DNA from: Escherichia phage PTXU04
Sequence record: NC_048193.1
DNA length: 61,600 bases
Strand: one strand, 5' to 3'
Part shown: in pieces, positions 3,561-30,191 of the stretch
How the letters are laid out: every line of letters starts with the position of its first letter
Numbering within the stretch: the first letter of the stretch is position 1
Notes under the pieces: generated by a model
Database searches by the model: none
The model's input: only the letters and a program-made list of their open reading frames with translations
What the model was told of the DNA's origin: nothing
Position numbers and translations under genes: made by a program

Positions 3561-5009
3561 ATGGAATTAACAGTTGCGGGTGGCTACTTCATTCCCGGCA
3601 AGACGCCGCAAATTATCAATAAGGTTAATGAGTTAATCGCTCTCGGCTACGTTCCCTACGGTACCCCGACGTATAACGAGGCCAGCGGTTGGGTAAGTCA
3701 GCTAATGGTGCTGGGCTACGGCGGCAGCGCTACTGACTACACTCTCACGACTGGTTATCTCGATAAGACTCCCTACTTCCCTAAGAAGCCGCCAGTTAAC
3801 GGTAATTGGGTGTTGCTCGGCTCACTACTGGCGCGCTCCAATAATTTCTACGTGCACGCATGGCTTGACGGCGTAGCCGCTGGCCCACTCATCAATATCG
3901 ACACGGGCACCACTGGCACGCTACCAATCAGCCGGGGCGGTACCGGGGCAACTACGGAACTGGACGCACGCAACAATCTGGAGTTAGGCGCAGAGGATGA
4001 CGTGACGTTTAACAGCGTTACCAGTCGCAAGCGCAACACCGGAACGTCAGCGTTCATCGCTCAGGGCGTTGATGGCTACACTCCAGCATCCAGCTTTACA
4101 ACGCAGATGTACGACACCGCAGGTACCACGTTGCTCGGTCAGGGCGAGTTCCGCGCCAACAATAACGGTACGCTGCAAATCATCAACCGCGATCCTGTAG
4201 GTTCAACGTCATACTTCTGGACCTTCGGACGCGACGGGACTACTGAGTTTCCGGGACAAACAATTATTCCCGCAACTCCGGGTAAACCTTGCATCCTCAG
4301 GTCGGGTGCTCCGGTTCTCCAGTTTGAGGAAACCGATACTGGCAAGGTTTACACGATGGTTGCCGATGGTAGCGGTCTGCGTATCAATGCTAACAACACA
4401 AGCGGTCCGATCGTATGGGGTTATAGCGGAACAACATCTCGTCTACAATTACCTGGTATCGAGGGTAACATTCAGATGTATAGCGGCACCACAACCAGCC
4501 TCGGTGTAATCACTACTGGCGGCGGTACCACAGCGGTGGGTACTCGCAACCAGTTTGAGGTGACCACTTCGGCGGGGTTCTATCTGGTGCGACGTAACAC
4601 TCAGAACACCACCGGACAATATATTATCAACTTCCCTACGAGTGCAGGAACCCTGGCCCTCGCAGGTACGTCAGGTATCAATTTCAAACATGACATTACT
4701 GACGCCGATTTACTGGAAGCTGTGAACCGCATCGACGCGCTACGCATGGTCAACTTTGTCTACAACGACGACGAGCAAAACCGCCAGCGCTTCGGGATTA
4801 TCGCGGAAGAGGCGGAAACTATAGCTCCGCAGTACATTAAACATCGTGAAGAAATGTATGAATGCGACATTGACGAGAACGGATCATCCATCAACCAGAA
4901 GTTCCGCGACCGTCCGTTTGTTGACGTTAACCCCATCGTCATGGATTTACTGGGCTACGTTAAGCACTTGTCGGCACGCGTGGCTGAACTGGAAGAGAAA
5001 TTAAAGTGA
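3561..5009 (+). CDS. tail fiber/spike protein with C-terminal intramolecular chaperone (peptidase S74-like) domain
   Basis: 482 aa; Gly/Thr-rich beta region; C-terminus (FGIIAEEAETIAPQYI ... LLGYVKHLSARVAELEEKLK) resembles the self-cleaving chaperone domain of phage fibers/endosialidases. GGAG RBS 9 nt upstream. Confidence 0.6.
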   Translation: MELTVAGGYFIPGKTPQIINKVNELIALGYVPYGTPTYNEASGWVSQLMVLGYGGSATDYTLTTGYLDKTPYFPKKPPVNGNWVLLGSLLARSNNFYVHAWLDGVAAGPLINIDTGTTGTLPISRGGTGATTELDARNNLELGAEDDVTFNSVTSRKRNTGTSAFIAQGVDGYTPASSFTTQMYDTAGTTLLGQGEFRANNNGTLQIINRDPVGSTSYFWTFGRDGTTEFPGQTIIPATPGKPCILRSGAPVLQFEETDTGKVYTMVADGSGLRINANNTSGPIVWGYSGTTSRLQLPGIEGNIQMYSGTTTSLGVITTGGGTTAVGTRNQFEVTTSAGFYLVRRNTQNTTGQYIINFPTSAGTLALAGTSGINFKHDITDADLLEAVNRIDALRMVNFVYNDDEQNRQRFGIIAEEAETIAPQYIKHREEMYECDIDENGSSINQKFRDRPFVDVNPIVMDLLGYVKHLSARVAELEEKLK

Positions 5010-12625: not shown

Positions 12626-14896
12626 ATGGCTAATTATGATCGCTTTGCATTGCAAGGTGGCCTCGACACGGCCACTCCTTATCTCAGCCGCCAGCCCGGT
12701 ACGCTGACTGCCGCCACAAACTTCTCCCCTGAGACGGATGGCGGCTATGCGCTTGAGGCTGGTTACGAACGTTTCGACGGTCAGCCAGCACCGAGCGAGA
12801 CTGTGGTGTACAGCCTCAACATGACGGACGATGTTACAGGTCTGCTACCGGGTGACGTTATCACAGGATCAACGTCCGGCGCGGTAGCAACTGTCGGCGC
12901 GGTTTTCGGTAAAGAAATCTGGTGTGATGTCACTAATGGTGTCACATTCATGCCGGGTGAGAATATCGGCGCTAACGTTATCGAGTACCTCTCAACGGAA
13001 GCTATTGACCAACGCAGCTACAGTCCGACAGCTACACGCACTACGATTCTGTTGATGTCACCGCTGGCGGCTAACACACTGGAAGTCGGCGATGCGTTAC
13101 TGGGCTTATCCTCAGCCGCTACAGTGGAAGTGAACATCATCAAAGTTACCAACGCTGACATGTGGGTATACGTGTCCACGCTGGCTGGCGCGGTGCAGAT
13201 TGGCGAGACGATGGTGAAGGGTGATGGTACCGAGTACAAGGTTAACGGTGAGTACGAAGTGGAACCTATGCTGGCCTCCCCGGATACTCCCGCAGGTGTC
13301 TTCTTTTACCTGAGCGAATTACGTCGCGCTAAGATTGGTGTGGTGCCGGGTATCAACAGTGTGCGCGGTGTATGGGATCTGGAAGGTGTCGTGTACTCGT
13401 TCCGTGACGCTGACGCCGACAGCACCAAAATGTACCGCAGTACGGTGACAGGCTGGCAGGAAGTCGACCTGGGCTTTACGATGGGATGGGATACGCGCCC
13501 GTCTACAACCACTGACGATGAACTCGGTCCGGGTGATTCAATCCGTGGTGTGACGTCCGGCGCTACGGCAACCGTCGGCTGGGTAGGTTACATCGCTCAG
13601 GATCACTCGTCAGGCTACCTGACGTTCACCAACGTGACCGGAACGTTCCAGGCGGGTGAAGTAATTCGCAACGACACGTACAGCGTCGACATTGGTGAAG
13701 TGACTGCGGCGGCCACGGCTAACGTACTCCCGGCTAACGGTCTGTACCGTTTCACCAACCACAACTTCTTCGGCGGTCTGAACACCTTCGCAATGTACGG
13801 CGTGAACGGTGTCGGTAACGGTTTCGTATACAACGAGACGAACGGCTTCTCATTCATCCCGACGCAGGCAGATACGGATACACCGTTCGACGTGGTTGAA
13901 TACAAAGACCACTTATTCTATGCGTTCCCGAAAGGTAGCCTGCAACACAGCGTGCTGGGTAGTCCGATGGACTGGAGCGGTGGCCTCGGCGCACTGGCGG
14001 TCGGCGTAGGTTCGGAAATCTCTTCACTGATTCCGGCACCAAAATCGCTTATTATTTGTACAGAGAAAGACATCCAAAGTCTTGAGGGGAGCAGCATCGA
14101 TGACTGGCAAAAAGAGGTTATTACTCAGCATACTGGTATCTCTAAATTTACTGGGGTGTACCAGTCTCAATCACTCGTACTCGCCCAGGCAGGTATCATT
14201 AGTATCGACCGGACTGACCAATTTGGTAACTTTAGCGACGGTACTATCAGCGACATCATCCGAGACACCATCGTACCTAACTATTCTCGCTGCACTTGCG
14301 CAATGGCAAGGAAGAGTCGAGGGCAGTACAGACTACATTTCGAGGGAGACGTCAACATTGCCCTTTCCACTAACCAGGGGAATGTGATCGGCTTCTCGAT
14401 GTTTGACTACGGCGGTCTGACGGTGCGTACGGCGGTCAACCCGTACGGTCGTATCTTCTTCATTTCGGACACCGGATACGTCTATCAGGATTCCGTAGGG
14501 GCCAGTAACGATGGTGGTGAACGGTCATCTGTATTCCGCACATCCTTCGCCAACCAGGGTGACCCGGATACTCGCAAGCGGTACCGCCGTATGGACATGA
14601 GTATCCGTGCTCAATCTTACCTTAACGCGCGTGTCGTTTTCTCGTACAATAAAGGCGCATCCACGCCGCAGGCATCGGTCGAATCTGGCCTGTTAGTGTC
14701 CGGCGGCGGACGCTGGGATTTGTCGCTGTGGGGGCAAGTCTACTGGGATGCCACGGAAAACCCGACAATCTCGTCTGACATTGACGGTTTAGGTTTTGAC
14801 ATCAGCACCATGCTGTACATCCGGTCACGAATCCATCCGCAGTTTACCGCAGAGGATTTATCATTCGAATGGTCACCACGTAGAAAGGTACGATAA
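12626..14896 (+). CDS. virion structural protein (tail tube B-like by position)
   Basis: 756-aa beta-rich protein between the 220-aa protein and the fibers. Confidence 0.45.
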   Translation: MANYDRFALQGGLDTATPYLSRQPGTLTAATNFSPETDGGYALEAGYERFDGQPAPSETVVYSLNMTDDVTGLLPGDVITGSTSGAVATVGAVFGKEIWCDVTNGVTFMPGENIGANVIEYLSTEAIDQRSYSPTATRTTILLMSPLAANTLEVGDALLGLSSAATVEVNIIKVTNADMWVYVSTLAGAVQIGETMVKGDGTEYKVNGEYEVEPMLASPDTPAGVFFYLSELRRAKIGVVPGINSVRGVWDLEGVVYSFRDADADSTKMYRSTVTGWQEVDLGFTMGWDTRPSTTTDDELGPGDSIRGVTSGATATVGWVGYIAQDHSSGYLTFTNVTGTFQAGEVIRNDTYSVDIGEVTAAATANVLPANGLYRFTNHNFFGGLNTFAMYGVNGVGNGFVYNETNGFSFIPTQADTDTPFDVVEYKDHLFYAFPKGSLQHSVLGSPMDWSGGLGALAVGVGSEISSLIPAPKSLIICTEKDIQSLEGSSIDDWQKEVITQHTGISKFTGVYQSQSLVLAQAGIISIDRTDQFGNFSDGTISDIIRDTIVPNYSRCTCAMARKSRGQYRLHFEGDVNIALSTNQGNVIGFSMFDYGGLTVRTAVNPYGRIFFISDTGYVYQDSVGASNDGGERSSVFRTSFANQGDPDTRKRYRRMDMSIRAQSYLNARVVFSYNKGASTPQASVESGLLVSGGGRWDLSLWGQVYWDATENPTISSDIDGLGFDISTMLYIRSRIHPQFTAEDLSFEWSPRRKVR

Positions 14897-16521: not shown

Positions 16522-18134
16522 GTAACCAATATTACAACTTTATCAATCCGGCTGAAGCGGGTACGATTGTCGACCCGTTCGACTACAACCGTGAGATGGA
16601 AAAGATCACCGAGGCTTTCTCGGTGGTCCCGCCTGCTTCCCAGTTAACTTCCGGTACCCTGAACTACTCAACGGATACGGGTACCGGGAATGATCACATC
16701 GCCACGCTGGATGACTTTGATACCGACTATGTTGCCGGGAGTAACGTTGCGCTCCGAATCAATGACGCGTCTACCGGACCGTCTACCCTGAGTGTAAACG
16801 GGCTGGCCGCTAAAGACGTCACGCTGTCTGTGTTCGGCGCTGTGGCGGCAGGTGACCTGTTTGCTGAAGGTGTCTATACCTTCGTATTCAACGGTGAGCG
16901 TTTCCAGATTCTGGAGATGGGCGCACGCTATTACACTACCGCCTTCGAACAGCTTTCAATCGCCCAGGCTAAAGCTGCACTCGCGGCGGCCAGTGAAGCT
17001 GCGGCACTGAGTGAGCGTAACGCAGCAGCAGCGTCGGCGGCAAACGCCCTCACGTCAGCAAACGCTATTACCGCGTCCAAAGATGCAGCAGCAGGTAGCG
17101 CTACGTCTGCGGCAAACTCTGCGTCGGCAGCAGCAGGTAGCGCTACGTCTGCGGCAAACTCTGCGTCGGCAGCCAACACCTCTGCGGTCAACTCCGCGTC
17201 AAGCGCAACGGCGGCGGCAAACTCCGCAACGGCGGCGGCAAACTCCGCGACGGCTTCCGACGCCAGCGCAACGGCGGCGGCAAACTCCGCAACAGCAGCA
17301 GCAGGTAGCGCGGCGGACGCAGCAACTTACGCACAGGAAGCTATCGACATCGTTAACGCGCCGAACTTTCTCGACCGCGTGCAGGCGGCTATTCTTGAAC
17401 TGGAACTGTTCCCCGGCTGTACCGAGTTCTTTGACGCTGACATCGATCCTAACGTTAAGTATCCGGGTACCACATGGGTACGCTTACCAGCGTCGACATC
17501 ATTACGTATGTCCAACGCCACGGGCAGTGACGTTAACGGAACGACAGGCGCTGACAGTGTGACACTTTCGACAAACAACCTGGCCTCGCACAACCATTCA
17601 GTGACAATGGGTACCGTGAGCAGCACCGACCTGGGTACCGACACTCTGGCATCTGTTGACCTGGGTACCGACACTCTGGCTAACACTACCATCGCAGCGA
17701 AGACCACATCCAGCTTCGACTATGGTACCAAAACGGCATCAGGTTACGATCCCGGTGCGATTTCCACCAGTGGTGCTGGCGGCCACAGTCACACGTTTAC
17801 GGCGTATACCGCAGACGGATCGGGAGTGAGAATACGCTCAGCAGCGAACGACTCGACGTCTGCGGGTAACGTCACCACATCAAGTGCTGGTAACCACACG
17901 CACACTGTAGCTTTAGGTGCGCACACGCACACTGTAGCTTTAGGTGCGCACACTCACACCTTCCCGGTCGGCAGTCACACGCACACTGTAGCTTTGGGAG
18001 CGCACAGCCACACAGTGGCTTACGGCAGTCACGGACATAGTGCCACATTGTCGTTAAGCAACACTGGTTCCGGTACGTCCTTTGGCGTGGTAGAATCGTC
18101 TCTAATCTTAGTTGCATGGTACAGGAGCGCATAA
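16518..18134 (+). CDS. tail fiber-like protein 2 (paralog of 14896-16521)
   Basis: 538 aa; N-terminus MSNQYYNFINPAEAG; Ala/Ser repeats including a perfect 42-bp tandem DNA repeat; C-terminal LGAHTHTVALGAHTHTVALGAHTHTF repeats. Confidence 0.6.
   Translation: MSNQYYNFINPAEAGTIVDPFDYNREMEKITEAFSVVPPASQLTSGTLNYSTDTGTGNDHIATLDDFDTDYVAGSNVALRINDASTGPSTLSVNGLAAKDVTLSVFGAVAAGDLFAEGVYTFVFNGERFQILEMGARYYTTAFEQLSIAQAKAALAAASEAAALSERNAAAASAANALTSANAITASKDAAAGSATSAANSASAAAGSATSAANSASAANTSAVNSASSATAAANSATAAANSATASDASATAAANSATAAAGSAADAATYAQEAIDIVNAPNFLDRVQAAILELELFPGCTEFFDADIDPNVKYPGTTWVRLPASTSLRMSNATGSDVNGTTGADSVTLSTNNLASHNHSVTMGTVSSTDLGTDTLASVDLGTDTLANTTIAAKTTSSFDYGTKTASGYDPGAISTSGAGGHSHTFTAYTADGSGVRIRSAANDSTSAGNVTTSSAGNHTHTVALGAHTHTVALGAHTHTFPVGSHTHTVALGAHSHTVAYGSHGHSATLSLSNTGSGTSFGVVESSLILVAWYRSA
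17089..17172. repeat. perfect 42-bp tandem duplication inside fiber gene 2
   Basis: cagcaggtagcgctacgtctgcggcaaactctgcgtcggcag occurs twice back to back (17089-17130, 17131-17172). Confidence 0.7.
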
Positions 18135-19267
18135 TGTCAGGATTAACTAACCCGGCACAGTCGGATAGCACCACTACTAACCAGCCGGATCAGGTGCTCG
18201 CTACGAGCACCCCTTCGTCCACGTCCGGTGCGCTGGGTGCGAGCAACATTCAGAACGACGCGTCACAGCAGTCGAATGTGGCCTCGTCAATGGCGCAGGC
18301 GGCACAGGCTCAGCAGCAGCAGCAACAGCCGCAGCAGCAGCAGGCGGTACCCGTTGCGTCACAGCCAGCACCGCAGCAGGTGACCAATGGTGCCGTAGCA
18401 AACAACAATAACGCCAACGCCGCCAACAACTACCAGACTGTGGACCAGGCGTACAGCCAGTTGACCGCACAGAATAGCCCGATGATGCAGCAGGCAGCGG
18501 CTACGGCCCAGCGTCAGGCAGCACGTCGCGGTATGGGTAACTCGTCTATGGCTGTCGGCATGGGTCAGGCGGCCACGGATGCGGCTGCACAAAACATGGC
18601 GTCACAGATGGCTACCCAGTCGCAAGGTCAAGCGCAGTACAATCGCAGCCAGACGGAAGCTGAACGCGCCAAGCAGGTACAAGAAGGTCAGACGGATCGT
18701 CAATTGACAGAAGCCGAACGTGCCGCCCTGGTGCAAGAAGGGCAAGGACAACAGCAAATCACCAACCAGGCGTCACAGTTCGCACAGTCTTTAGAAGAAC
18801 AGATTCGTTCCGGTAAGGTCAGCGAGCAGCAAGCCCAGCAGCAGATCAACAACCAGGCGTCACAGTTCAGCCAAAGCCTGGCCGAGCAAATCCGCTCCGG
18901 TAAAGTGACGGAAGCGCAGGCTGCCGAGCAGATTAAGAATCAGGCGTCGCAGTTTAAAGATTCCCTGAAGCAACAACAGTTTGAGTTCAACGCCAACCTC
19001 GGTCTGGAGAACGCCAAGCTGAAGCAGGACGCCGCACAGTTCGCAACGTCTATTCAGGCTAACGCCCGTGGCAGCTATACGGACTCGGTGAACAACCTGT
19101 TAAACAACAGTTCGGTGAACATCAACAATATTTCTTCCAACCCGGATTTGACCACGGACCAGAAGAACAAGCTGATCTCGCAGGAACTGAGCAACCGTAA
19201 CAATGACCTGAAGTATTTGCAGTCACTTTATGGTAACGTTACATCCTGGTCCGACAAACTGAAATAA
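18116..19267 (+). CDS. Gln-rich repeat protein (possible internal virion protein)
   Basis: 383 aa; QQQQQQPQQQQ run; three tandem peptide repeats NQASQF-QSL-EQIRSGKV. Confidence 0.5.
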   Translation: MVQERIMSGLTNPAQSDSTTTNQPDQVLATSTPSSTSGALGASNIQNDASQQSNVASSMAQAAQAQQQQQQPQQQQAVPVASQPAPQQVTNGAVANNNNANAANNYQTVDQAYSQLTAQNSPMMQQAAATAQRQAARRGMGNSSMAVGMGQAATDAAAQNMASQMATQSQGQAQYNRSQTEAERAKQVQEGQTDRQLTEAERAALVQEGQGQQQITNQASQFAQSLEEQIRSGKVSEQQAQQQINNQASQFSQSLAEQIRSGKVTEAQAAEQIKNQASQFKDSLKQQQFEFNANLGLENAKLKQDAAQFATSIQANARGSYTDSVNNLLNNSSVNINNISSNPDLTTDQKNKLISQELSNRNNDLKYLQSLYGNVTSWSDKLK

Positions 19268-19276
19268 GGGGCGGCT

Positions 19277-19579
19277 ATGAGTTTCTTCGGTAGTTTTCTC
19301 GATACGGCGTCCAGCGCTTTCAACTGGCTGAGCAACAACAAGGCGGCACTGGATTTAATCTCCGGTGCTGCAAAAGGTTACGGTGCTTACATGCAGTACA
19401 AGCAGGGTAACCAGCAAATGAAATTGATGCAGAAGCAGCAGGAGAACGAGCAGCGTCGCTGGAATGATACGCACGGTGTCATCGACAGTTACGACAACTC
19501 TATCCCTCCGGGGCAGCAGGCTAACTCTGCGTTACTGTCAGGCAGCATGGCCGACGCAATGAAGCAAGGAGTTAAATAA
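19277..19579 (+). CDS. hypothetical protein
   Basis: 100-aa ORF; translationally coupled to flanking genes. Confidence 0.45.
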   Translation: MSFFGSFLDTASSAFNWLSNNKAALDLISGAAKGYGAYMQYKQGNQQMKLMQKQQENEQRRWNDTHGVIDSYDNSIPPGQQANSALLSGSMADAMKQGVK

Positions 19580-20535
19580 TGGCACAGGCACAAGGCGGTA
19601 CCGCAGGTAGCTCATCAACCCGTGGCAACGGCAGCTTATCGGCTGGCGCATCTTCGCGTGGCGGCGGCTTAGGCGGTGGCCTCGGTGGTAGCAACGGCGG
19701 CAGCAATAACGCGGGTAACAGCAAAGGTAACGCTGCGTCGAGCAATGCGGCCAGTGGGGCTTCAGCAGGCGCAGCAGCGGCAGGCGCAACGGCGGCAGCG
19801 GCAGGTGACTCTAAGCAGACTGGCGGCAGCCTCATGGGCGGTCTGAAGTCGGCGGTGGATAGCGCACGTTCTTCACGCACCGCAGCAGCCGCACCGTCAA
19901 CCAGCGCACCACAAGGTACTTTGTCGGCGTCCGACGTTGCAGGCATTGACAGCGAAAGCCATTCAGCCGCTGCGAACCTGGCAGCACGCGATCAAGGTTT
20001 CCGTGACACAGCTAACGCTAAGACCACCGCAGCAACAATGGGCGGCCTCGGTATGGCTGGTAGTCTCGTAGGCAATCTTGCCAGTAAACTGACAGCAGCG
20101 GCAGCACCGACTGAAGGTAGCGACCTGAGCGCTAACCACAACGTTGGTAAGGCGTGGGCTAACAGCGTCGGTCCCAGCAAAACTGTGAGCATGGCTGCAA
20201 GCCTGGCTGGCGGTATTCTCGGCGGTCCTATCGGTTCCGCACTGGCTGGCTTCGCGCTGGGTATTGCTAACGATCAGGCGGCCAAAGCAGCTAACCCGCA
20301 AGCGATGGCCGCTACACCACAGCAGATTGCCAACCGCGCTACGTTCGGTCAGCAGGCGGGTACCAGCAGTTCCGATCAGTACGATGCGACTGGTGCTAGT
20401 TCCGGTACCAACAATAGCAGCAACATGATGTCATCCATGAGCGCCGCCGCTCAACCGGGCGCTGGCTTCCAGGCGGCTGACGATTTCAGCGAGCAGCGTA
20501 AAGTGGACAACCTCAACTTAGGGAGCATCATCTAA
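19579..20535 (+). CDS. Gly/Ala/Ser-rich low-complexity protein
   Basis: 318 aa; GGGLGGGLGGSNGGSNNAGN and poly-Ala tracts. Confidence 0.45.
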   Translation: MAQAQGGTAGSSSTRGNGSLSAGASSRGGGLGGGLGGSNGGSNNAGNSKGNAASSNAASGASAGAAAAGATAAAAGDSKQTGGSLMGGLKSAVDSARSSRTAAAAPSTSAPQGTLSASDVAGIDSESHSAAANLAARDQGFRDTANAKTTAATMGGLGMAGSLVGNLASKLTAAAAPTEGSDLSANHNVGKAWANSVGPSKTVSMAASLAGGILGGPIGSALAGFALGIANDQAAKAANPQAMAATPQQIANRATFGQQAGTSSSDQYDATGASSGTNNSSNMMSSMSAAAQPGAGFQAADDFSEQRKVDNLNLGSII

Positions 20536-21092
20536 TGGGCGTTAGTCAGGAATATATCGATCAGCAGAAATACTACGCTGACGCAGTACAGGCATACAAA
20601 GCCAACGGTATGAGCCACAACGCAGCCTGGAAAAAGGCGGAAGCTGACTGGGCCGCAGGTGAACGTAACGTTGCCCGGAACGCGGATACCACAGGTTACA
20701 AGCCTCAGAACGCTGATACCAAAGCGTCACAGGGTGTTGTCCCGGCGTCACAGCGTAACGAAGATGGTACCCCCATCAACACGGCAAGCTCCGGTAGTAA
20801 CAGTAGTGGCAACTCTACTGAAGCCGTGCGCTACCGTGGTTCAACATCACAGACTCGCGTGGGTACCGATACCCGTGTGCGTGGTGGTACCGAAGCATCC
20901 AAAGCTGGTCAGGGTATGGGTAACACCGATCAGGGTATGGCTGCGGCAATGAAGAGTGCCACAGGCAAACAATTCGCTGACTCCAGTGACGTTCAACCCG
21001 TGGCCTCCAAGCAGAACGCATGGCAGGGAAACCGGACTCCGGTTAATCTGGCTTCCGTACAGCAACGTGTGTTAAAGTCTATCGGTCAATAA
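20535..21092 (+). CDS. hypothetical protein
   Basis: 185 aa; coupled start (ATG overlaps upstream stop). Confidence 0.45.
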   Translation: MGVSQEYIDQQKYYADAVQAYKANGMSHNAAWKKAEADWAAGERNVARNADTTGYKPQNADTKASQGVVPASQRNEDGTPINTASSGSNSSGNSTEAVRYRGSTSQTRVGTDTRVRGGTEASKAGQGMGNTDQGMAAAMKSATGKQFADSSDVQPVASKQNAWQGNRTPVNLASVQQRVLKSIGQ

Positions 21093-21107
21093 ATTAAGGG
21101 GCGAATT

Positions 21108-21794
21108 ATGTCAATGATGGATGCAATGAGTATGGGCGGCCAGCCTCCGCAGCAGGAAACGCAGGCACCACAGACTCAACCAATGGACCAGAAGACGTTG
21201 CGTATGGGCGGCGATGACCCTGCGGAAATGGAGAAGCTCTATAACAAAGTTATGGCGCTGATCTCTTCCGAGATTTGGGAAGGTCAGGGTGCCGACCAGG
21301 TGTCTGCACAGTTGATGGAAGATGACTCTGAGCCAGCCGAGGTTGTCGGCAAGTTCACTGGCTTCTATCTTATGATGGCTACTGCCGCTGCCAGAACTAA
21401 CGGTGGTTCATTCCCGCCTGTGGTTATCGTGGGTGCTGCCGCAGAGACGTCGAGTCAGCTTACTGATCTGGCGCTTATGCTGAAACTGATCTCCCCGGAA
21501 GAAGCGGACGATACCGCAGACGCTGGCGCACTGATTGGTCTGGAAGTTCTCATCGCCCAGGGCGGTAACCAGATGGCACCTGAAGAGAAACAGGAATACG
21601 CCGACATCGTTAAGGCTGTCATCAACGCATCGCCGAACGCTCAGGAAATCGCTGAGGAAGGTGCCGAGGATGCCATCGAAGAAGTTGAAGAAATGGGCGC
21701 ACCGGACGACAGCGCTGAAGAGATGGAAGCACAGACCGATGTTGATATGGCAGAGAAACCGCAGGGCATGGCCGCTGCAATGGGAGGCGCGTAA
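21108..21794 (+). CDS. acidic hypothetical protein
   Basis: 228 aa; Asp/Glu-rich C-terminus; GGGGCGAA RBS-like upstream. Confidence 0.45.
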   Translation: MSMMDAMSMGGQPPQQETQAPQTQPMDQKTLRMGGDDPAEMEKLYNKVMALISSEIWEGQGADQVSAQLMEDDSEPAEVVGKFTGFYLMMATAAARTNGGSFPPVVIVGAAAETSSQLTDLALMLKLISPEEADDTADAGALIGLEVLIAQGGNQMAPEEKQEYADIVKAVINASPNAQEIAEEGAEDAIEEVEEMGAPDDSAEEMEAQTDVDMAEKPQGMAAAMGGA

Positions 21795-22648
21795 TGAGTA
21801 TCGGTGAAGCACTGGCGGCAATGTTTGCAGGTGCAGCAGGTGAAGCGGCAGGTAACCGCGCGACTGAAATTCGTGACGAAGAAAAAGCTCGTCTGGCAGA
21901 AGCACGCGAACTGAAAATGATGGCGCTCCAGCAGAAGTACCAGACGTCCGAGCGTGAGGCCAGTCAGGCTTACGGTACGTCCGAGCGTAAGGATACTCAG
22001 GCTTACAACTCTGCCGAGAAGCAGAAAGACCGTGACTTCCAGTCTTCCGAGCGTCAGGCATCGCAGGCATTCCAGGCTGGCGAGAATGCTAAGTCACGCG
22101 CGGCTCAGGCTGGTAGCGATGGTGTTGGTCCGAACGGTAAGCGTCTGCAAGGTACACCGCAGATGGAGAAAGACGAAGACGGCAACATGACGGGTCGTAT
22201 GATCTTTACCTATCGTGACGGTACCGTACAGGTTAAAGCCATTGACGATCTGCCGGGTGGCGACGCTGACACCAAATCCAGCAAAGCACAGCGTGAGTCC
22301 GACGCCGCAGCATATGCTAAGAAGCGTGTCAGTGAGCAAGCTGGCCTCCTGTCATCCGATAAGGAAGACTTCAAAGATTATGGTGGTAGTCGCACCAAAG
22401 CTGAAGAAGCCTACAAGCAGGAGTATCTCAACAAGAACAAAGGTGGCGGCAGCAATGAAGAGTTACCGGGCAGCGGTCCTAAGTTCCAGGAGGGCGCAGA
22501 TCTGGCGACTAAGGAAGCTGAGAAAGGATACACCGCTAACCAGCAAGCCATGATCGCTCGCGTTAAGGAGAAGTACCCTGACGCATCCGATGACCAAATC
22601 GCGGCGGCCATTCGTGCTAATCCGCAATATGCACCAATGTTCAAATAA
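21794..22648 (+). CDS. repeat-containing hypothetical protein
   Basis: 284 aa; four SER-x-x-SQAY-type peptide repeats. Confidence 0.45.
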   Translation: MSIGEALAAMFAGAAGEAAGNRATEIRDEEKARLAEARELKMMALQQKYQTSEREASQAYGTSERKDTQAYNSAEKQKDRDFQSSERQASQAFQAGENAKSRAAQAGSDGVGPNGKRLQGTPQMEKDEDGNMTGRMIFTYRDGTVQVKAIDDLPGGDADTKSSKAQRESDAAAYAKKRVSEQAGLLSSDKEDFKDYGGSRTKAEEAYKQEYLNKNKGGGSNEELPGSGPKFQEGADLATKEAEKGYTANQQAMIARVKEKYPDASDDQIAAAIRANPQYAPMFK

Positions 22649-22689
22649 ATGTGCTATGCTTCCCCTATCAACAAGGGGGAGCATTTCTA

Positions 22690-25600
22690 ATGGCTAGTAA
22701 CATCGACCTTTCTGGACTGGACTTATCCCAGCCAAATCAACAACCTGCAACGAAGAAGTCTGAAAAGACTGCACCTGCTATTGACCTGTCGACGGTTAAC
22801 TTTGACCTGAGCGACGTAGACTTTTCCGGTATTGGAAATGAGAAGGCTGTCACAGAACCAGCAAAAGAAGATAGCTGGGGCGACGTAATTTACAAATCTC
22901 TCGCCGCGATGCCTGAGCGTATGCAACGTTCATGGCAGGGTATCAAACAAGGCGTGGCCGTTAAAGGTCAAGACCTGACTGACGGGGTGCTGGCTGAACG
23001 CCTGCGTAACGATCCGTCATATGCTGCCGAACTGGGGATTGACCCGGCTACCTTTACCGCTGCCGAAGGCGACACGTATGCGACCAAACTGCAAAAGAAT
23101 AAAGCTCTCTACGCCGCTATTGATAAAGCGAAGGCCGCAGAACTGAATAAGGATGCCGACTTTGTTGCCGCGCGTGATGAAGGTCTTCGCCTGTCAAACG
23201 AGATTGCCAAAACTGCACCGAAGACTGGTGACGAGTGGTCAGCTAAAAACCTGGTATCCACAATCCTCACTGGCGCGCAGGACATGTCTCCGGCAATCCT
23301 GACGTCCATCCTGTTGAAGCGTCCGGTCGCTGGCCTCGCTGAGATGACTGGTCAGGCGTACGGTTCCTACTATCAGGACTCAATCGACAAAGGTCTGTCT
23401 CCGGCAGAAGCCGATAACCGCGCTACCATGTTCGCCGCACTGGAACCAATCACTGAAGCGGTACCGCTGGGCCTCATCATGAAGAAGGGTGCGACTAGCC
23501 TGACTGACCTCGGTAAGTCTGCAATGGCTGAAGGTATCCAGGAGTCCGCTACCCAGGCTATCCAGAACGGTTACGACATTGGTGTGCTTGACGAAGATAT
23601 GACGGTAGGCCAGTTCCTGAATGACGTGGCGTTCTCCGGTGTAACTGGTGCTGGCGTAGGTGGCGTGCTGCATGGCGCGGTGCAAGCTCCCGGCATGGTC
23701 AAAGACTGGAAGGATAACCGCTCTGTTAACAACGCTATCGGTGACGCTGCGGCTGAGTCCGGTCAGGCGGTAGAAGGCGTGGACCCGAACGAGTACGACG
23801 CTGTGCGTGCTGAGATGGGCGGCGGTGACGTGCTGGACCAGATGGTTGAACAGGCATCTCCTGCAATCACTGAAGCTCGCAAGTCTGCCTACATGGAAGC
23901 GCGCGCCCAGGGTATGTCTCCGGCTGAAGCGATGGCCGCATCCCGTGAAGTCGGTGAAGTCGACGCTATGGATCAGATGGTCAGCGAACTGTTCGACTCC
24001 CCGGACTCCATCTACTATGCGAACAAGGCAAGCGCCACTAACGCACCGCAGTCTGTAGCACAGATGGTACAGCAGCAGGTAGCGCAGGGTGACATTGGTC
24101 CGCTTCCGGGCGAGACTAAAGGTCTGCCGTCTCCGGGGCAAACTTCCACCATCGCTATGCCCGGTCCAGTTGCGCAGGTTAAAGAGGCCACTGGCTACAA
24201 TCCACGCGGTGCGGCTGAAGAGTCTCCGGTACTGGCAGCAGTCCAGCAGAAACTGGAAGCGCCAGCACTGCCGCCGCAGGTTACTGAAGCTGTGGTACCG
24301 CCAGCACTGCCGCCTAAAGCTGAAGTGACTCCGCCTGCGTTACCGCAGATTGACGTAGCCGCTGCACTGGAACCTACCGTTCCTGCCGCTGAGCCAGCCG
24401 CTGCCGAGGTTAAACCGAAGCCAGCACTGTTTGCCCGTACCAAAAAGAAAGCCGCGCCAGAAGTCGATACAGAAGCACTGGCCGCCGAAGAAGCACGTCA
24501 GGCAGAACTGAAGGCGAAAGGTGACGAGGCTGTAGCCAAATACGTTGAGCGTGAATCCGTGCGTCCGGCGTTACCGGGTAAGAAGCCGCCAGCTATTCAG
24601 GTCACCAACAAGATCCTGAAGGAAGCCAACGAGCGTGGCGTTGACGTCGGCAATAAAGTGAACTGGAACGGCAAGGAGTATTCCGTCGATAAATTCCAGG
24701 GCCGTGCTGTACGTCTGGTTGATGAGAACGGCAACGGTCACATTGTTGATGCCCGTGAAATCAACGTGCCGTCTGTGGTACCGGAAGGTATGAAGCGTGT
24801 ATCCCAGGAAACCAAAGACGCCCGTGAGCGTTACGACCTGGCCCCTGTAGAGTTCGAAGATGAGCGCAACCTGGGTGAGATGGTTACCGATGCACAGCAG
24901 GCGACCGACGATGTACTGGCGCAGTCTGCCGAAGTTCAGCGTGACCTGGGTGAGATGATCGCTGAGAAGGAGAAGGACAACGCCGCAATTGAAGGTGAGT
25001 CCACTCGCGTTACCGACGTTGAAGGTCGTGTTGGTTTTGAACCAGTGGAAGGTACCGACCTGGACGGGAAGTATGCGAAAGACTCCCACGGTGAAGTCCG
25101 CAAGATTACTGGCGTGCAAGGTCGTCGCTTCGTGCTGGACAATGGCGACATCATGATTCGTCGCATTGGTGACACCAACGTGATGGATGCTCCACCTAAA
25201 GGCGCACGTAAAGCGATGTCGATGGAGGAACGTATTGTAGCTAACACGCTGCAAGGTATGCTGCATTCACTGAACGATACCAAGCGTCCGCTAAACAAAC
25301 TGCGCGAAAACATGTCTCACGCTAGTAATCAGGTTGATGAACAGTACCGCCATCTGTACGCGCCACTGAAGGGTAAGACTCGCGCGGCCATGCGCAAGGA
25401 ACTGGAAGACCGTATGTCCAGTATCGCTGAGCAGTCACCTAAAGGTCTGAGCAAAGAAAGTCAGGCGACGGCTGACCGCCTGCGTGAGAAGTCTTCCGCA
25501 CGCGCTGAGTCTTTCGAGAAGTCACTGGAAGATTTCACGCGTGGTATGAAACCGCTGGTACGTCGCAACTACATTCGCGCCCTGGAGAAGATGCAACCGG

Positions 25601-28600
25601 ACGGCATTACCCTGAAGGAAACCATCGACCGTGCGTATGCCCGTGGCGATAAAGTTGACTCCCGTGACATGTCGGCACCAGCCAGACATTACGTGGCCTA
25701 CAAAGAAGCTCGCGTACCGAAGAAGACTGACAAGCCGGACGTTACCCCGAACGTCGACTATCACACGCTGGTAGGTAAAACTTTCGAGGAAGACGGCGAG
25801 ACGTTCACCGTCAAGTCTATTCACGACACGTACCTGGCTACCGAAGACTCACAAGGTCGTCGTGAGATTTTCGGCAAGGATTACGCTAAGCGTAAGATCG
25901 ACAAGCAGTCCGGCGCGGCCAGCGTTAAGCCTGCGACCGAGAAGAAAGGGATGTCACCTGAAGATGTGGCTGTGGTTGCTACCGACTTCCTGAAGAAGTT
26001 CAAAGGTGCGCAGGCAATCAACATGTCCGTCATGCAGCGTCAGGAAGACATGGGTATCGACCTGCCGGAAGGTAGCGTACTGCTCGGCTTCTACGATGCT
26101 GGCAACGTGAGCGCCAAGCTGATCTCTGAAAACCTGACCAGCAAGGAAGAAGTGGAAGCGCTGTTGCGTCACGAAATCATCGTGCACTACGGCCTGCGCG
26201 CTCGCCTGTCTAAACCGGAATACGACGCTGAGATGGATAAAATCCTGGCCGCTGATAAGTCCCCGGCGCTGGCGAAGTATTTCAAAACTGTACGCGAGCA
26301 ATACAGCGACCTGTATGACATGAACTCACCTGACGCACAACGCATGATGGCTGAAGAAGTCCTGGCGCTGGCGGCAGAAAACCCGGCTATCCTGGAGAAG
26401 TCCAACGTCATTACCCGCGTGATTGAAGCTCTGCGTCAGTTGATGATTAAAGCCAAACTGATTGACGGTCGCGCCAGCATGGAGTCAGTACGCCAGCTTA
26501 TTCAGGCCAATGCTCAGTACCTGCGTGACAACACTGTCAACCGTGACGACGTGCGTAAGTCTCTGCCGCCGATGCAATACAGCGCGCCGAAGAACTTTGC
26601 CGCCAGCCTGAAAAAGAAAAATGACATCGAGTCTGCGGAAGTGGACGAAGACATCAAGCAGGGTATGCGTGACACCATGTACCGCGATGACCGCTCTCTG
26701 TTCCAGCGCATCAAAGACATCATGAAAGACAACGGTCTGACGATGGAAGGCTTGTATCAGAAAGGCGTGGATGACCTGTACACCATCGCCAAATATGAGA
26801 AGGCTGGCAACAATGGTGAACTGCGTCAGGGTAAAGAGTCAGCGTACAAGATGGCAATGCTGGCGAAGAACGTGAACAGCACCGTGGCCGTCGCAATGAA
26901 CCACGGCGCTCCGGTATACAAAGACGGCGGCATCAGCCTGAACAAGAACACCAAAGGCTTCACCGAAATCTTCAAGCCAGTGCTGGAGATGAAAGGTAAC
27001 ATGCTGCCAGTGTGGGAATACTGGGCGGGTGCTGTGCGTGCTAAGCGCTTGATGGAAGAAGGCCGCGAAAACCTGTATACCGAGAAGCAGATTAAAGACA
27101 TCATCGACTATGTTAACCGTCGCCCGGAAATGCGTAAGGTGTTCAACCAGGCACACAAAGACTGGCGTGAGTTCAACAAAGCTATCCTCGACTTCGGTGA
27201 GCAAACTGGCATCGTGGATCCTGAGCAGCGTAAACTGTTCGAGTCCGATGACTACGTTCCGTTCTACCGTGTGGATGAGGAAGTGGACCGTGTGACAGCA
27301 CCGTCTGGAAAACGTGGCCTCGCTGATCAGTCTTCCGGTATCCGCCGTCTGAAAGGTGGCGCTGGTAAGATGGACATTCTGGAGAACATGGCGCGTAACG
27401 TTAACCACATGATCACCTCCGGCTACAAGAACGCGGCCATGCAGAAGGTGCGTGACATCACCATCAACGCAGCGCTGGAAGAAGTACCGCATAACTTCAA
27501 GCCAGTCGGCATCAGCAACGAGCAGATGAAACGTGCGCTGACCAACCTGGGTCTGAAGGTTGAAGGTATGACCGCTGAGCAGATGGCGCAATACTCCAAC
27601 CTGTTCACCGCAGTAGCACCGCAGGGCGCTAACATTATCTCCGTGCGTGAAGGTGGTAAGCCGAAGTATTACGAAGTGACGGATCCTCAGTTGTTGGAAG
27701 CTATCGCAGGTGTTGGCCCGGAAGCCGTTGATACCCTCATCAACATTCTCGGCTGGCCTAAGCGTGTGTTCACCGCAGCCGTGACGTCAACGCCTAACTT
27801 CGTTATGACCAACTTCGTACGTGACGTGATGGGTAACTATGTGCAGATGGCTAAAGCAACTGGCCGCAACGAGACGTCAACGATTGTCAAAGATGTACTG
27901 ACATTCCGTCCGTTCTTTAAAGCGTTCCAGGGTGCGATGCGTTCTATCCGTAACGATAACATGACTGTCGATTACCATGTGGCTGGCGGCATGATGGGTG
28001 GTTATGACAACTCACGTCCAGAGTCGGTTGCCAAAAACCTGCGCAAGCTGGAGAAAGGCGGCACCATCATTAACTCACCGAAGAAGCTGTGGGAAATGTA
28101 CAGCAAGTTGCTGACCGCATCTGAACAGGCCACGCGCATGGGTGTGTACGAAGATGTCCTGAAGCACACTGGGGATCCGGTGGAAGCGGCATACCAGTCT
28201 AACGATGTGCTGAACTTCAGCCGCCGTGGTAGCAGTCGTTTGACCAAAGCGGTCATGGCGATCACCCCGTTCCTGAATGCCCGTGTACAGGGTCTGGACC
28301 GTATGGTGCGCGGTGGTAAAGAGAACCCGAAAGCCTTCATGCTAAAAGGTGCTCTGCTTGTTGGTGCAACGATGGCCCTTATGGCAATCAACGCAGACGA
28401 CGAACGTTACTGGGCGCTGCCGGAACACGAACGTGATTCCTTCTGGATCATCTTCGCTGGCGACACTCGCTACCGTATCCCGAAACCGTTCGAACTGGGA
28501 GCACTGTTCGGCACTATCCCTGAGCGTGCATTCGAAGCGCTGTACCGTGATGACCGTATGTTCGGTGCACGCATGGGCTTCATGCTGGGTAACACCTTCG

Positions 28601-29283
28601 CGATGGACTGGCCTCAATTCTTCAAGCCAATCTACGAAGACCAGACCAACATGAACAGCTTTACTCAGCGTCCGGTTGTACCGCAGTCACTGCAACGTCT
28701 GGAAGCTAACCAGCAGTACAGCACCACGACGCCGGAATGGATTAAGGATGTGAGTAAGGCGTTACCTGAAGCTGCCCCGGAATGGATGCGTAGTCCGCTG
28801 CGTCTCCAGCATATGATTGAAGGTTACACCGGAACAGTCGGTCAGTACATCATCGGCGTAACGGACGTGGCCTACCGCAAAGGAACGGGTACCGAAAAAG
28901 TTGCCCCGGCTAAAAAGGATTTTGATTACCCGGTGGTAAAAACTTTCGTACGTGGCGGTGTGTCCGGCGACAAATACACCGACCGTCTGTACCAGATGAG
29001 CGAGAAGGCTGGTCAAACGTACGGTACCCTGAAGGCGTACAAAGACCAGAAGAACATGCAGGCGTATCGGGAGTTCAAGACCGAGAAGGCCAGCGTGTTG
29101 TCTGCCCGTAAGTCAATTGAGAAAGGCGTTGCCCGGATGCAGAAGTACAACCGCCAGACGAAAGAGATTTACGCGAACGACAGTATGTCACCTGAAGCGA
29201 AGCGTGCGGAACTGGACGCCTTACAGGTTAAGAAGAACGAACTGGCGAAAGAATTGAGTGACAAATATTGGATGTTGTTTTAA
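22690..29283 (+). CDS. giant virion-associated protein (~2200 aa; putative internal/ejection protein)
   Basis: ORF-track frame 22651-29283; start moved to ATG 22690 with AAGGGGGAG RBS. No P-loop or polymerase motif recognised; last gene of the structural block; followed by hairpin plus T8 (29324-29354). Confidence 0.55.
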   Translation: MASNIDLSGLDLSQPNQQPATKKSEKTAPAIDLSTVNFDLSDVDFSGIGNEKAVTEPAKEDSWGDVIYKSLAAMPERMQRSWQGIKQGVAVKGQDLTDGVLAERLRNDPSYAAELGIDPATFTAAEGDTYATKLQKNKALYAAIDKAKAAELNKDADFVAARDEGLRLSNEIAKTAPKTGDEWSAKNLVSTILTGAQDMSPAILTSILLKRPVAGLAEMTGQAYGSYYQDSIDKGLSPAEADNRATMFAALEPITEAVPLGLIMKKGATSLTDLGKSAMAEGIQESATQAIQNGYDIGVLDEDMTVGQFLNDVAFSGVTGAGVGGVLHGAVQAPGMVKDWKDNRSVNNAIGDAAAESGQAVEGVDPNEYDAVRAEMGGGDVLDQMVEQASPAITEARKSAYMEARAQGMSPAEAMAASREVGEVDAMDQMVSELFDSPDSIYYANKASATNAPQSVAQMVQQQVAQGDIGPLPGETKGLPSPGQTSTIAMPGPVAQVKEATGYNPRGAAEESPVLAAVQQKLEAPALPPQVTEAVVPPALPPKAEVTPPALPQIDVAAALEPTVPAAEPAAAEVKPKPALFARTKKKAAPEVDTEALAAEEARQAELKAKGDEAVAKYVERESVRPALPGKKPPAIQVTNKILKEANERGVDVGNKVNWNGKEYSVDKFQGRAVRLVDENGNGHIVDAREINVPSVVPEGMKRVSQETKDARERYDLAPVEFEDERNLGEMVTDAQQATDDVLAQSAEVQRDLGEMIAEKEKDNAAIEGESTRVTDVEGRVGFEPVEGTDLDGKYAKDSHGEVRKITGVQGRRFVLDNGDIMIRRIGDTNVMDAPPKGARKAMSMEERIVANTLQGMLHSLNDTKRPLNKLRENMSHASNQVDEQYRHLYAPLKGKTRAAMRKELEDRMSSIAEQSPKGLSKESQATADRLREKSSARAESFEKSLEDFTRGMKPLVRRNYIRALEKMQPDGITLKETIDRAYARGDKVDSRDMSAPARHYVAYKEARVPKKTDKPDVTPNVDYHTLVGKTFEEDGETFTVKSIHDTYLATEDSQGRREIFGKDYAKRKIDKQSGAASVKPATEKKGMSPEDVAVVATDFLKKFKGAQAINMSVMQRQEDMGIDLPEGSVLLGFYDAGNVSAKLISENLTSKEEVEALLRHEIIVHYGLRARLSKPEYDAEMDKILAADKSPALAKYFKTVREQYSDLYDMNSPDAQRMMAEEVLALAAENPAILEKSNVITRVIEALRQLMIKAKLIDGRASMESVRQLIQANAQYLRDNTVNRDDVRKSLPPMQYSAPKNFAASLKKKNDIESAEVDEDIKQGMRDTMYRDDRSLFQRIKDIMKDNGLTMEGLYQKGVDDLYTIAKYEKAGNNGELRQGKESAYKMAMLAKNVNSTVAVAMNHGAPVYKDGGISLNKNTKGFTEIFKPVLEMKGNMLPVWEYWAGAVRAKRLMEEGRENLYTEKQIKDIIDYVNRRPEMRKVFNQAHKDWREFNKAILDFGEQTGIVDPEQRKLFESDDYVPFYRVDEEVDRVTAPSGKRGLADQSSGIRRLKGGAGKMDILENMARNVNHMITSGYKNAAMQKVRDITINAALEEVPHNFKPVGISNEQMKRALTNLGLKVEGMTAEQMAQYSNLFTAVAPQGANIISVREGGKPKYYEVTDPQLLEAIAGVGPEAVDTLINILGWPKRVFTAAVTSTPNFVMTNFVRDVMGNYVQMAKATGRNETSTIVKDVLTFRPFFKAFQGAMRSIRNDNMTVDYHVAGGMMGGYDNSRPESVAKNLRKLEKGGTIINSPKKLWEMYSKLLTASEQATRMGVYEDVLKHTGDPVEAAYQSNDVLNFSRRGSSRLTKAVMAITPFLNARVQGLDRMVRGGKENPKAFMLKGALLVGATMALMAINADDERYWALPEHERDSFWIIFAGDTRYRIPKPFELGALFGTIPERAFEALYRDDRMFGARMGFMLGNTFAMDWPQFFKPIYEDQTNMNSFTQRPVVPQSLQRLEANQQYSTTTPEWIKDVSKALPEAAPEWMRSPLRLQHMIEGYTGTVGQYIIGVTDVAYRKGTGTEKVAPAKKDFDYPVVKTFVRGGVSGDKYTDRLYQMSEKAGQTYGTLKAYKDQKNMQAYREFKTEKASVLSARKSIEKGVARMQKYNRQTKEIYANDSMSPEAKRAELDALQVKKNELAKELSDKYWMLF

Positions 29284-29399: not shown

Positions 29400-29774
29400 A
29401 TGGACATGGGATATTACAACATGAACAAGCAAATCAGAGTGGAAATGCTTGTCGGCATGGTGACATTAACGTGGTCAATCGTGGCGGCAGTATTCAAACA
29501 GCCAGTCATTATTGATGAGTTAACTGGTATCATGCCTGGCGCATGGTGGGTATTCTCAGGCATTGTAATTGGTGGCGCTCAGATCTATATCTCCCGCAAC
29601 CCTGAGCGATGGATGGGAACATTCAGCCACTGGTGTGTAGCGTTCTTCAGTTGTATCTTCTGGTGTTATCTCGGCATGGCCGCACAAGCCGCCGCAGTCG
29701 GAGTAGTTCCCATCCTGATTTTCTGGTCTACCGCTGGCGTCACTTTATGGGAGTTGGCACATGTTCGAACTTAG
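29400..29774 (+). CDS. membrane protein (about 4 predicted TM segments)
   Basis: 124 aa; hydrophobic stretches LVGMVTLTWSIVAAVF, WWVFSGIVIGGAQIYI, WCVAFFSCIFWCYLGMAA, VGVVPILIFWSTAGVTLW; GGAG RBS. Confidence 0.45.
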   Translation: MDMGYYNMNKQIRVEMLVGMVTLTWSIVAAVFKQPVIIDELTGIMPGAWWVFSGIVIGGAQIYISRNPERWMGTFSHWCVAFFSCIFWCYLGMAAQAAAVGVVPILIFWSTAGVTLWELAHVRT

Positions 29775-29994
29775 TTCAATCCCGGTGGACGCTCCGTTAC
29801 CTTTCATTGCGATCGCAGTGTTATTCAACCTGGTACGCCATGCGTTGAATCTTCACCACGAACGTAAGAAGGAGGCAGCGGAAGAGGCCACGAACGAAAG
29901 GATTGTTGTGTTGTCGTCGAAGCTGGCGAAGGCGGAACAGACTATCGAGCACTTGAGGGAAGAGGTGGAACGATTGAAAAACAAAGGGGCTTAA
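29761..29994 (+). CDS. small TM plus coiled-coil protein (spanin-like or antiholin-like?)
   Basis: 77 aa; N-terminal TM (PFIAIAVLFNLV) then charged coiled coil; GGGAG RBS; stop lies in the loop of the bidirectional terminator. Confidence 0.4.
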   Translation: MFELSSIPVDAPLPFIAIAVLFNLVRHALNLHHERKKEAAEEATNERIVVLSSKLAKAEQTIEHLREEVERLKNKGA

Positions 29995-30005
29995 CGCCCC
30001 TTTTT
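29986..30005. terminator. bidirectional rho-independent terminator at the convergence of late (+) and early (-) blocks
   Basis: AAA GGGGC TTAAC GCCCC TTTTT; the stop codons of 29761-29994 (+) and 29991-30191 (-) both sit in the loop. Confidence 0.6.
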
Positions 30006-30191
30006 GATACTCGCTGCAATCTTCAGTTCGACAGGTACGCGATTGAGATCGCGGTGAATGCCTACATCCGGTGGTGCGGAAATACGTAGACCGACGTTAC
30101 CATTCTCAGAGTTCTCTACCGTCACGACAATATCGTTACCGATGTAGACGCTCTGACCTTCACGTCTGGTAATACGGAGTCCCTTAGCCAT
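29991..30191 (-). CDS. CsrA-like RNA-binding protein (carbon storage regulator homolog)
   Basis: ORF-track frame 29991-30257 trimmed to ATG 30191 (GGAG RBS 6 nt upstream). Product MAKGLRITRREGQSVYIGNDIVVTVENSENGNVGLRISAPPDVGIHRDLNRV aligns with E. coli CsrA ([21 protein letters not shown] ... VRIGVNAPKEVSVHREE), including the beta1 TRR and beta5 HR(D/E) RNA-binding residues. Confidence 0.6.
   Translation of the reverse strand: MAKGLRITRREGQSVYIGNDIVVTVENSENGNVGLRISAPPDVGIHRDLNRVPVELKIAASIKKGR

Follow-up and report, generated by a model that had tools for sequence, protein, structure and literature searches.

The giant polyvalent protein gp25 of Escherichia phage PTXU04, a candidate cargo-less internal ejection protein

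The genome of the podovirus Escherichia phage PTXU04 (NC_048193.1), type phage of the genus Xuquatrovirus, was analyzed over its full length of 61,600 bases (the window), with emphasis on gp25 (PTXU04_00025), the giant protein encoded by the last large gene of its structural operon. Our results suggest, with a probability of about 0.6, that gp25 is packaged in the head as an internal virion (ejection) protein, and that it is a polyvalent protein pared down to the frame conserved in its class. This frame consists of three parts, an N-terminal module (N-module), a probable zincin metallopeptidase, and an 840-amino-acid (aa) C-terminal super-module (C-module), with disordered and plastic regions between them. 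That gp25 is a member of a known family is already published: Iyer et al. (2017) defined the polyvalent proteins and the LPD38 domain, which they reported as restricted to the phage type and of unknown function, and Adler et al. (Nat Microbiol 2025) described PTXU04_00025 as a putative polyvalent protein with LPD38 as its only confident annotation. New here are the three-module frame, a widespread N-module with a remote tie to the virion RNA polymerase (vRNAP) of phage N4, the probable HExxxH metallopeptidase, the plastic middle of the protein, a block of cysteine-free genes, and the replacement of the giant in the related phage HelliStehle. Together, these features support the view of gp25 as a cargo-less "chassis" ejection protein.

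The gene and its translation start were located as follows.

22690..29283, + strand: coding sequence (CDS) of gp25, 2,197 aa plus stop, zero cysteines, supported by orthologs
22673..22681, + strand: Shine-Dalgarno sequence AAGGGGGAG, a strong ribosome-binding site read directly from the sequence

A previous reading of the bare sequence (hereafter the original prediction) had proposed a single open reading frame (ORF) of about 6.6 kb and ~2200 aa, which agrees with the frame called here and with the identical GenBank CDS PTXU04_00025 (22690..29283, coordinates also used by Adler et al.). The uninterrupted mechanical ORF spans 22651..29283 on the + strand and opens at a GTG located 39 nt 5' of ATG 22690; this ATG, 8 nt past AAGGGGGAG, is likely the start. 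A hairpin-like element (TTCCCC...GGGGGAG, 22660-22681) overlaps the ribosome-binding site and could modulate the initiation of gp25 translation. The best database match, at 100% identity, was "hypothetical protein PTXU04_00025", and the sole close annotated relative, phage Pondi, possesses a colinear ortholog (93.5% nucleotide and 95.5% aa identity across the whole gene), also annotated as hypothetical. The unusual size of the ORF is the sole point in favor of an artefact in which several genes would have been fused by a sequencing or assembly error, the test that the original prediction had proposed. Such an artefact, like a frameshift, is excluded because the frame is intact in Pondi and in ~40 metagenomic orthologs (2,010-2,458 aa, on ~60-kb contigs), the full length being kept in dozens of independent assemblies at 57-95% identity; moreover, both end modules of gp25 were found within single ORFs of hundreds of other phages. 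Cysteine is absent from the protein; its hydrophobic 19-mer (aa 1882-1900) is the only one, aa ~400-620 are rich in Pro and Ala, and HExxxH occurs once. A motif scan of the protein detected no Walker A, HExxH, or CxxC motif, as expected from the earlier statement that it has no P-loop.

The C-terminal region of gp25 comprises three features.

26752..29280, + strand: C-terminal super-module, aa 1355-2197, mainly helical and always C-terminal in family members
28333..28389, + strand: conserved hydrophobic helix, aa 1882-1900, followed by an acidic DDE motif (family conservation)
28399..28932, + strand: Pfam LPD38 domain, aa 1904-2081 (Pfam profile match)

LPD38 (PF18857) was the only Pfam family found in gp25, with 133.1 bits against a cut-off of 27 (E 1.6e-38). 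The original prediction, which considered the domain content unknown, had missed this polyvalent membership. No known effector enzyme domain was detected: whole-protein and tile scans with Pfam and PHROG detected no methylase, helicase, ADP-ribosyltransferase (ART), nuclease, ParB, or similar enzyme, and Pfam scans of tiles, individual domain members, and profile consensus sequences returned no significant further family. No polymerase or lysozyme hidden Markov model (HMM) matched, in line with the earlier remark that polymerase and peptidoglycan-hydrolase signatures were missing, and the transglycosylase, ADP-ribosyltransferase, or RNA polymerase cargo that it had suggested was not found by domain-wise HMM tile scans, the probable metallopeptidase being the only candidate enzyme. 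PHROG profiles of other giant proteins matched gp25 aa ~1380-2188 with their own C-termini. A zone map obtained by BLAST against 81 retrieved homologs showed that aa 1-694 are kept among orthologs, that aa ~695-1075 are rearranged with insertions and deletions, and that aa ~1075-2197 are highly conserved. The distant relatives (22-33% identity) are classical polyvalent proteins that share gp25 aa ~1355-2190 at their extreme C-terminus and, in some cases, aa ~50-330 at the N-terminus; their other domains include ART-PolyVal, ddrB-ParB, MuF_C, SNF2/ResIII, Eco57I methylase, SLT, InPase, and RadC. With 2,197 aa, at least three conserved modules, and a position among the late genes of a portal-terminase phage, gp25 is itself a large multidomain protein.

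The AlphaFold2 model of aa 1040-2197, built from 31 sequences, was mostly helical (mean predicted local distance difference test score (pLDDT) 75.5, predicted template modeling score 0.64). A Foldseek search of this C-half against the PDB gave a best E of 0.19, whereas 73 significant matches were obtained against BFVD, with template modeling scores of ~0.5-0.7 over ~1,000 residues among the top matches. The named BFVD matches were C-terminal chunks of giant viral LPD38-type proteins, and no named ejection protein was among them. The C-half therefore has a family-specific fold with no solved counterpart. The hydrophobic helix and the acidic DDE motif are conserved across the family, and the helix is either a latent membrane segment or a buried core helix.

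The proposal that gp25 is packaged and delivered is made by analogy with homologs that are virion proteins. The 933W protein L0134 (2,806 aa), a member of the phi24B gp47 ortholog group, contains an MPTase-like domain (E 8e-25) and then the complete LPD38 super-module (full C-module, E 1.4e-73), in the same order as in gp25 and also at the C-terminus, with ~26% identity across the shared part. Like gp25, phi24B gp47/L0134 is a podovirus protein whose gene lies at the end of the structural module; unlike gp25, L0134 has no detectable N-module and carries LPD5, LPD1, and MuF-C-type domains. As reported in a preprint, phi24B gp47 is abundant in virion proteomics yet invisible in the cryo-electron microscopy map, and it has been put forward as an ejection protein carried in the capsid. 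The "DarB-like" giants of Bcep22-like phages (JC1 gp69, Bcep22 gp75) resemble gp25 in their near-C-terminal LPD38, in being the last large gene of the morphogenesis module, and in the presence of CsrA in the phage, and they are virion-associated by mass spectrometry: JC1 gp69 (4,515 aa, LPD38 at 4195-4401) was the second-strongest virion protein, with 51 unique peptides. They differ from gp25 by their size (4,515 aa, twice as large) and by their lytic-transglycosylase, methylase, and helicase domains.

At the other end of gp25, two features were delimited.

22690..22869, + strand: disordered N-terminal ~60 aa with tandem (I/V/F)D(L/F)S motifs (sequence and low-confidence model)
22867..23694, + strand: N-module, aa ~60-335 with a core at 170-335, helical (homolog search and alignment)

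The first ~60 aa contain five tandem (I/V/F)D(L/F)S motifs, for which a role as a multivalent docking or packaging signal is speculative. The strict motif was not general beyond gp25 orthologs, and distant family members carry comparable acidic-hydrophobic motifs in tandem (FDFS, IDLSG, LDLG, EFDF) ahead of the point where conservation of the N-module begins. The N-module is not covered by any Pfam model; its conserved residues include SWG..K.L.N.P.R.QR, Y...G.SP..A, and AEGxQE, and its end is Gly-rich and hydrophobic. When aa 41-360 were searched exhaustively with HMMER, 459 cluster representatives were recovered, 208 of them at E <=1e-10; nearly always, the match falls in the first 100-600 residues of a protein that is 2,000-5,800 aa long. 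Among the 102 N-module proteins of at least 1,800 aa, half (51) also have the C-module, which ends at a median of 21 residues from the C-terminus, and 25 have the MPTase-like domain. All three N-module proteins without a C-module that were scanned are polyvalent proteins of other kinds (LPD5/LPD1/PBECR1; helicase and methylase; LPD39). Among annotated phages, Vibrio podoviruses and Pseudomonas phage Itty13 encode giants named "DarB-like" or "methylase" that have the N-module at their head. For aa 1-1040, the AlphaFold2 model was poor (pLDDT 50.5), with long N-module helices, extensive disorder, and two small confident beta-domains. The long disordered, charged, and helical stretches of gp25 correspond to the coiled-coil and charged stretches noticed in the original prediction.

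N4 gp50 (vRNAP) is another giant protein that is encapsidated and injected, and the region of gp25 that recalls it is the N-module. In the tile scan, this module matched PHROG 2206 (N4-type virion RNA polymerases) at E 5e-4. A profile of 193 N-module sequences was then compared by hhalign with the N-terminal regions of nine Schitoviridae vRNAPs, and gp25 aa ~227-312 aligned with N4 gp50 aa ~324-423 over 84 columns (P 1.2e-4, probability 56%) with a score of 39.9, compared with 19.3 for the reversed template, at most 17.9 for 40 column shuffles, and at most 26.0 for 40 block shuffles (81 controls in all). The hhalign and PHROG 2206 matches are in identical register. Direct HMM searches of the N-module, MPTase-like, and C-module regions against N4 gp50 were not significant, the N-module signal coming from the profile-profile comparison only. 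These comparisons suggest a remote relationship between the N-module and the N-terminal region of N4 vRNAP, a region that Iyer et al. describe as involved in injection of the polymerase. Pfam and PHROG tiles detected no RNA polymerase domain in gp25. A description of gp25 as a "vRNAP minus polymerase" was considered and dropped, the LPD38 super-module being unmatched in vRNAP.

Upstream of the C-module lies the candidate enzymatic part of gp25.

25957..26589, + strand: probable zincin-like metallopeptidase, aa ~1090-1300 (conserved residues, model)
26170..26187, + strand: HEIIVH motif (HExxxH), aa 1161-1166 (sequence, alignment)

In an alignment of 19 diverse sequences, H1161, E1162, and H1166 were invariant and E1223 near-invariant, and homologs alternate between HExxH and HExxxH at the site. 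The HExxxH motif is thus accompanied by a downstream Glu (E1223) as a candidate third zinc ligand, a signature that the original prediction had not reported. The model places three beta-strands before the motif helix and further helices after it, which is the zincin layout described by Iyer et al. A weak match (P 0.012) was also obtained between this core and the MPTase core of N4 vRNAP at HELVH. From conserved residues and the model, aa ~1090-1300 are probably a metallopeptidase. Such a domain raises the possibility, suggested by Adler et al., that gp25 is a polyprotein precursor cut by its own metallopeptidase into separately acting virion or non-virion proteins. The conserved HExxxH...E domain and the long disordered linkers between folded modules would fit this scenario, and Iyer et al. 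propose MPTase-driven processing of polyvalent proteins, P1 DdrB being processed. On the other hand, the same authors report that N4 vRNAP is packaged unprocessed, and gp47 is presented in the phi24B preprint as a single large ejection protein, with no mention of processing. We consider a precursor somewhat unlikely as the explanation of gp25; it is also compatible with an ejection model rather than exclusive of it.

Between the N-module and the metallopeptidase, gp25 contains a disordered linker and three copies of a small repeat.

23707..24579, + strand: Pro/Ala-rich predicted disordered linker, aa ~340-630 (composition; pLDDT <50)
24580..24807, + strand: small beta-rich repeat 1, aa 631-706 (repeat alignment and model)
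25000..25233, + strand: small beta-rich repeat 2, aa 771-848 (repeat alignment)
25720..25881, + strand: degenerate beta-rich repeat 3, aa 1011-1064 (repeat alignment)

The beta-rich repeat is ~70 aa long and occurs three times in PTXU04 gp25 (24580-25881) and one to three times in close orthologs. As judged from these sequence comparisons, the middle of gp25 behaves as a plastic spacer.

The genes preceding gp25 encode terminase, portal, capsid, and tail proteins, then two fibers, followed by six low-complexity ORFs without a family match, so that gp25 closes the structural module as the original prediction had described.

18116..22648, + strand: gp19-gp24, six cysteine-free low-complexity genes, candidate co-ejected or internal proteins (gp19, 20, 23, and 24 Fit, see below)

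The products of gp19-gp24 are Q/G/A-rich, and the seven consecutive late genes gp19-gp25 (18116-29283, 3,695 aa) encode no cysteine at all; cysteine accounts for 0.44% of residues in the late proteins outside this block and for 1.87% in the rest of the genes, which are non-structural. At the late-gene cysteine rate, the probability that gp25 alone would be cysteine-free is ~6e-5, and 87% of 181 giants of the family are cysteine-free. We infer that the lack of cysteine is a constraint on proteins that pass through the tail channel and the oxidizing periplasm, and gp19-gp24 are likely co-packaged or ejected.

A second line of evidence came from the slot occupied by gp25 in related phages. HelliStehle (Bas95, PQ850607.1 22158-25887; L020:5584-9313) is a colinear relative without the giant, in which the slot before the gp26, gp27, and CsrA homologs is filled by Bas95_0028, a cysteine-free protein of 734 aa with none of the gp25 modules. 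This protein matched PHROG 770 "DNA transfer protein" at E 2.4e-40, in addition to a transglycosylase PHROG. In HelliStehle, a classical ejection protein has taken the place of the giant without being its ortholog. In a P22-like contig, the gp25 relative P0054 is encoded after coat, SU10-type adaptor, and gp10-like genes, which is the slot of the P22 ejection proteins, and the layout of the contig bearing P0044 mirrors that of PTXU04. The sole part of gp25 with a match in HelliStehle is beta-rich repeat 1. In that phage, Bas95_0028 is followed by two minus-strand ORFs and then by an unannotated stretch, where an orphan copy of the repeat was observed (L020:9001-9204, 50% identity).

A late-operon location, long helical and coiled segments, and essentiality (see below) would also be expected if gp25 were a morphogenetic or structural factor that is not ejected, such as an internal scaffold, a DNA-organizing core, or a tail-assembly ruler. 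We regard this as very unlikely: the homologs are abundant in mature virions yet lie outside the ordered structure, podovirus tails need no tape measure, and cysteine avoidance and the replacement by a DNA transfer protein in HelliStehle both point to ejection. The P22 gp7/gp20/gp16 and T7 gp14/15/16 ejection proteins share with gp25 the genomic slot and the presumed role, but each set comprises three medium-sized proteins in place of the single giant chain of gp25. Searches revealed no similarity of gp25, in sequence or fold, to P22- or T7-type ejection proteins, and gp25 has no transglycosylase domain, unlike T7 gp16 with its N-terminal lytic transglycosylase. P1 DarB is, broadly, also a virion-delivered polyvalent protein, but the LPD36-methylase-helicase module that defines it is absent from gp25.

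In the CRISPR interference screen CRISPRi-ART performed in E. coli BL21, gp25 was scored as "Fit" (essential), and single guides validated a large drop in efficiency of plating; gp19, gp20, gp23, and gp24 were also Fit, and expression of gp25 was toxic or interfered with infection (Adler et al.). These authors read gp25 as an injected anti-defense or host-takeover effector, similar to P1 DarB, which would be needed to neutralize a host system and not to build the delivery path. Members of the LPD38 polyvalent family do carry methylase-helicase, ART, ParB, RNase, and similar domains, and the probable peptidase of gp25 could itself be an effector. No effector domain was found in any gp25 tile, however, and the variable middle that bears cargo in the relatives is only disordered linker and small repeats in gp25. 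E. coli BL21 lacks a type I restriction system, and gp25 is nevertheless essential there; moreover, the HelliStehle slot is filled by a DNA transfer protein. An effector role thus appears unlikely, and because gp25 is essential in BL21 and has no known effector enzyme domain, its essentiality is better explained by a core role in delivery than by anti-restriction.

Several observations weigh against gp25 being an ejection protein built as proposed here. The link to vRNAP is remote (probability 56%) and covers ~85 residues only, and the profile-profile comparison of the gp25 C-half with the C-terminal "encapsidation" region of vRNAP revealed no counterpart of the C-module. The hydrophobic helix at aa 1882-1900 may simply be buried in the core. 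Every match of the metallopeptidase to a curated zincin was sub-threshold and centered on the motif: Peptidase_M90, M56, M76, and Tox-MPTase4, the "zincin-like metalloprotease" 3e11 at E~1, and, with Foldseek, MATCAP at E~3. MATCAP is itself an HExxxH gluzincin. As HelliStehle shows, phages of this type can do without the LPD38 frame if they have another ejection protein. Finally, peptide fingerprinting of virion gel bands by Korf et al. assigned gp7, 10, 11, and 12 only, and gp25 was not among them. The earlier suggestion, based on position, of an internal core or ejection protein is therefore strengthened by the virion data on homologs and by the HelliStehle slot, which are indirect, and is not matched by this fingerprinting of PTXU04 virions.

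If gp25 is an ejection protein, the following sequence of events may be envisaged. As its position as the last large gene of the structural operon shows, gp25 is made late, and, as for its virion-proven homologs, it would then be built into the capsid, probably with the cysteine-free gp19-gp24. Upon adsorption, it would exit through the portal-tail channel before the DNA in an extended state, a passage that fits its total lack of cysteine and its long disordered linkers. The N-module, by its remote relation to the injection-implicated region of N4 vRNAP, may act in the entry of protein and DNA. More speculatively, the LPD38 super-module and its hydrophobic helix could refold at the envelope and build or extend a conduit, and the HExxxH...E domain could act as a zincin-type metallopeptidase that processes gp25 itself or a target in the envelope or the host. 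We tentatively propose, at less than even odds, that the N-module and the LPD38 super-module are the delivery machine itself, a third type of podovirus ejectosome besides T7 gp14-16 and P22 gp7/20/16, in which the "polyvalent" enzymes of the relatives would be spliced-in cargo and gp25 a natural minimal, cargo-free version. Such an ejectosome would explain why gp25 is essential in a restriction-deficient host.

Downstream of gp25, two small ORFs precede a strand switch and a leftward operon encoding csrA, holin, endolysin, exonuclease, and DNA polymerase. The first of these ORFs, gp26 (29400-29774), lies directly 3' of the giant and encodes a small protein with three cysteines and several hydrophobic stretches that look membrane-like; Pondi and HelliStehle both retain it, CRISPRi did not score it as essential, and it may be a membrane protein that serves in superinfection exclusion or lysis. 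At 29983-30003, where the convergent late and leftward operons meet, a GC-rich hairpin (AAAGGGGC...GCCCCTTT) with a T-run was observed; it is probably a shared terminator. A CsrA homolog is encoded just downstream of the giant slot in PTXU04 (29991-30191, - strand), in a contig with a distant LPD38 giant (L003:20818-21039), and in HelliStehle (L020:9905-10105). The podovirus JC1, which has an LPD38 giant, also encodes CsrA, for which one peptide was detected in virions, making this a recurring association. In the tail region, a protein of 756 aa (12626-14896) matched a PHROG annotated "amidase" over aa 369-749 (E 2e-19), and the cell-wall-degrading activity of the virion, if any, may sit in this protein rather than in gp25.

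Giant LPD38 polyvalent proteins occupy 10-20% of many podovirus genomes, including those of Stx-converting phages. With a protein that is essential and toxic and has no recognizable effector, PTXU04 separates the function of the "frame" from that of the "cargo". If the frame is an ejection device, this would explain how very large proteins enter the cell with phage DNA, would lead to a reinterpretation of many "DarB-like" annotations, and would provide a starting point for engineering phages to deliver protein cargo of choice. If gp25 is indeed a cargo-free ejectosome, it would be the cleanest model for the packaging of 200-600-kDa proteins and their threading through a podovirus tail.

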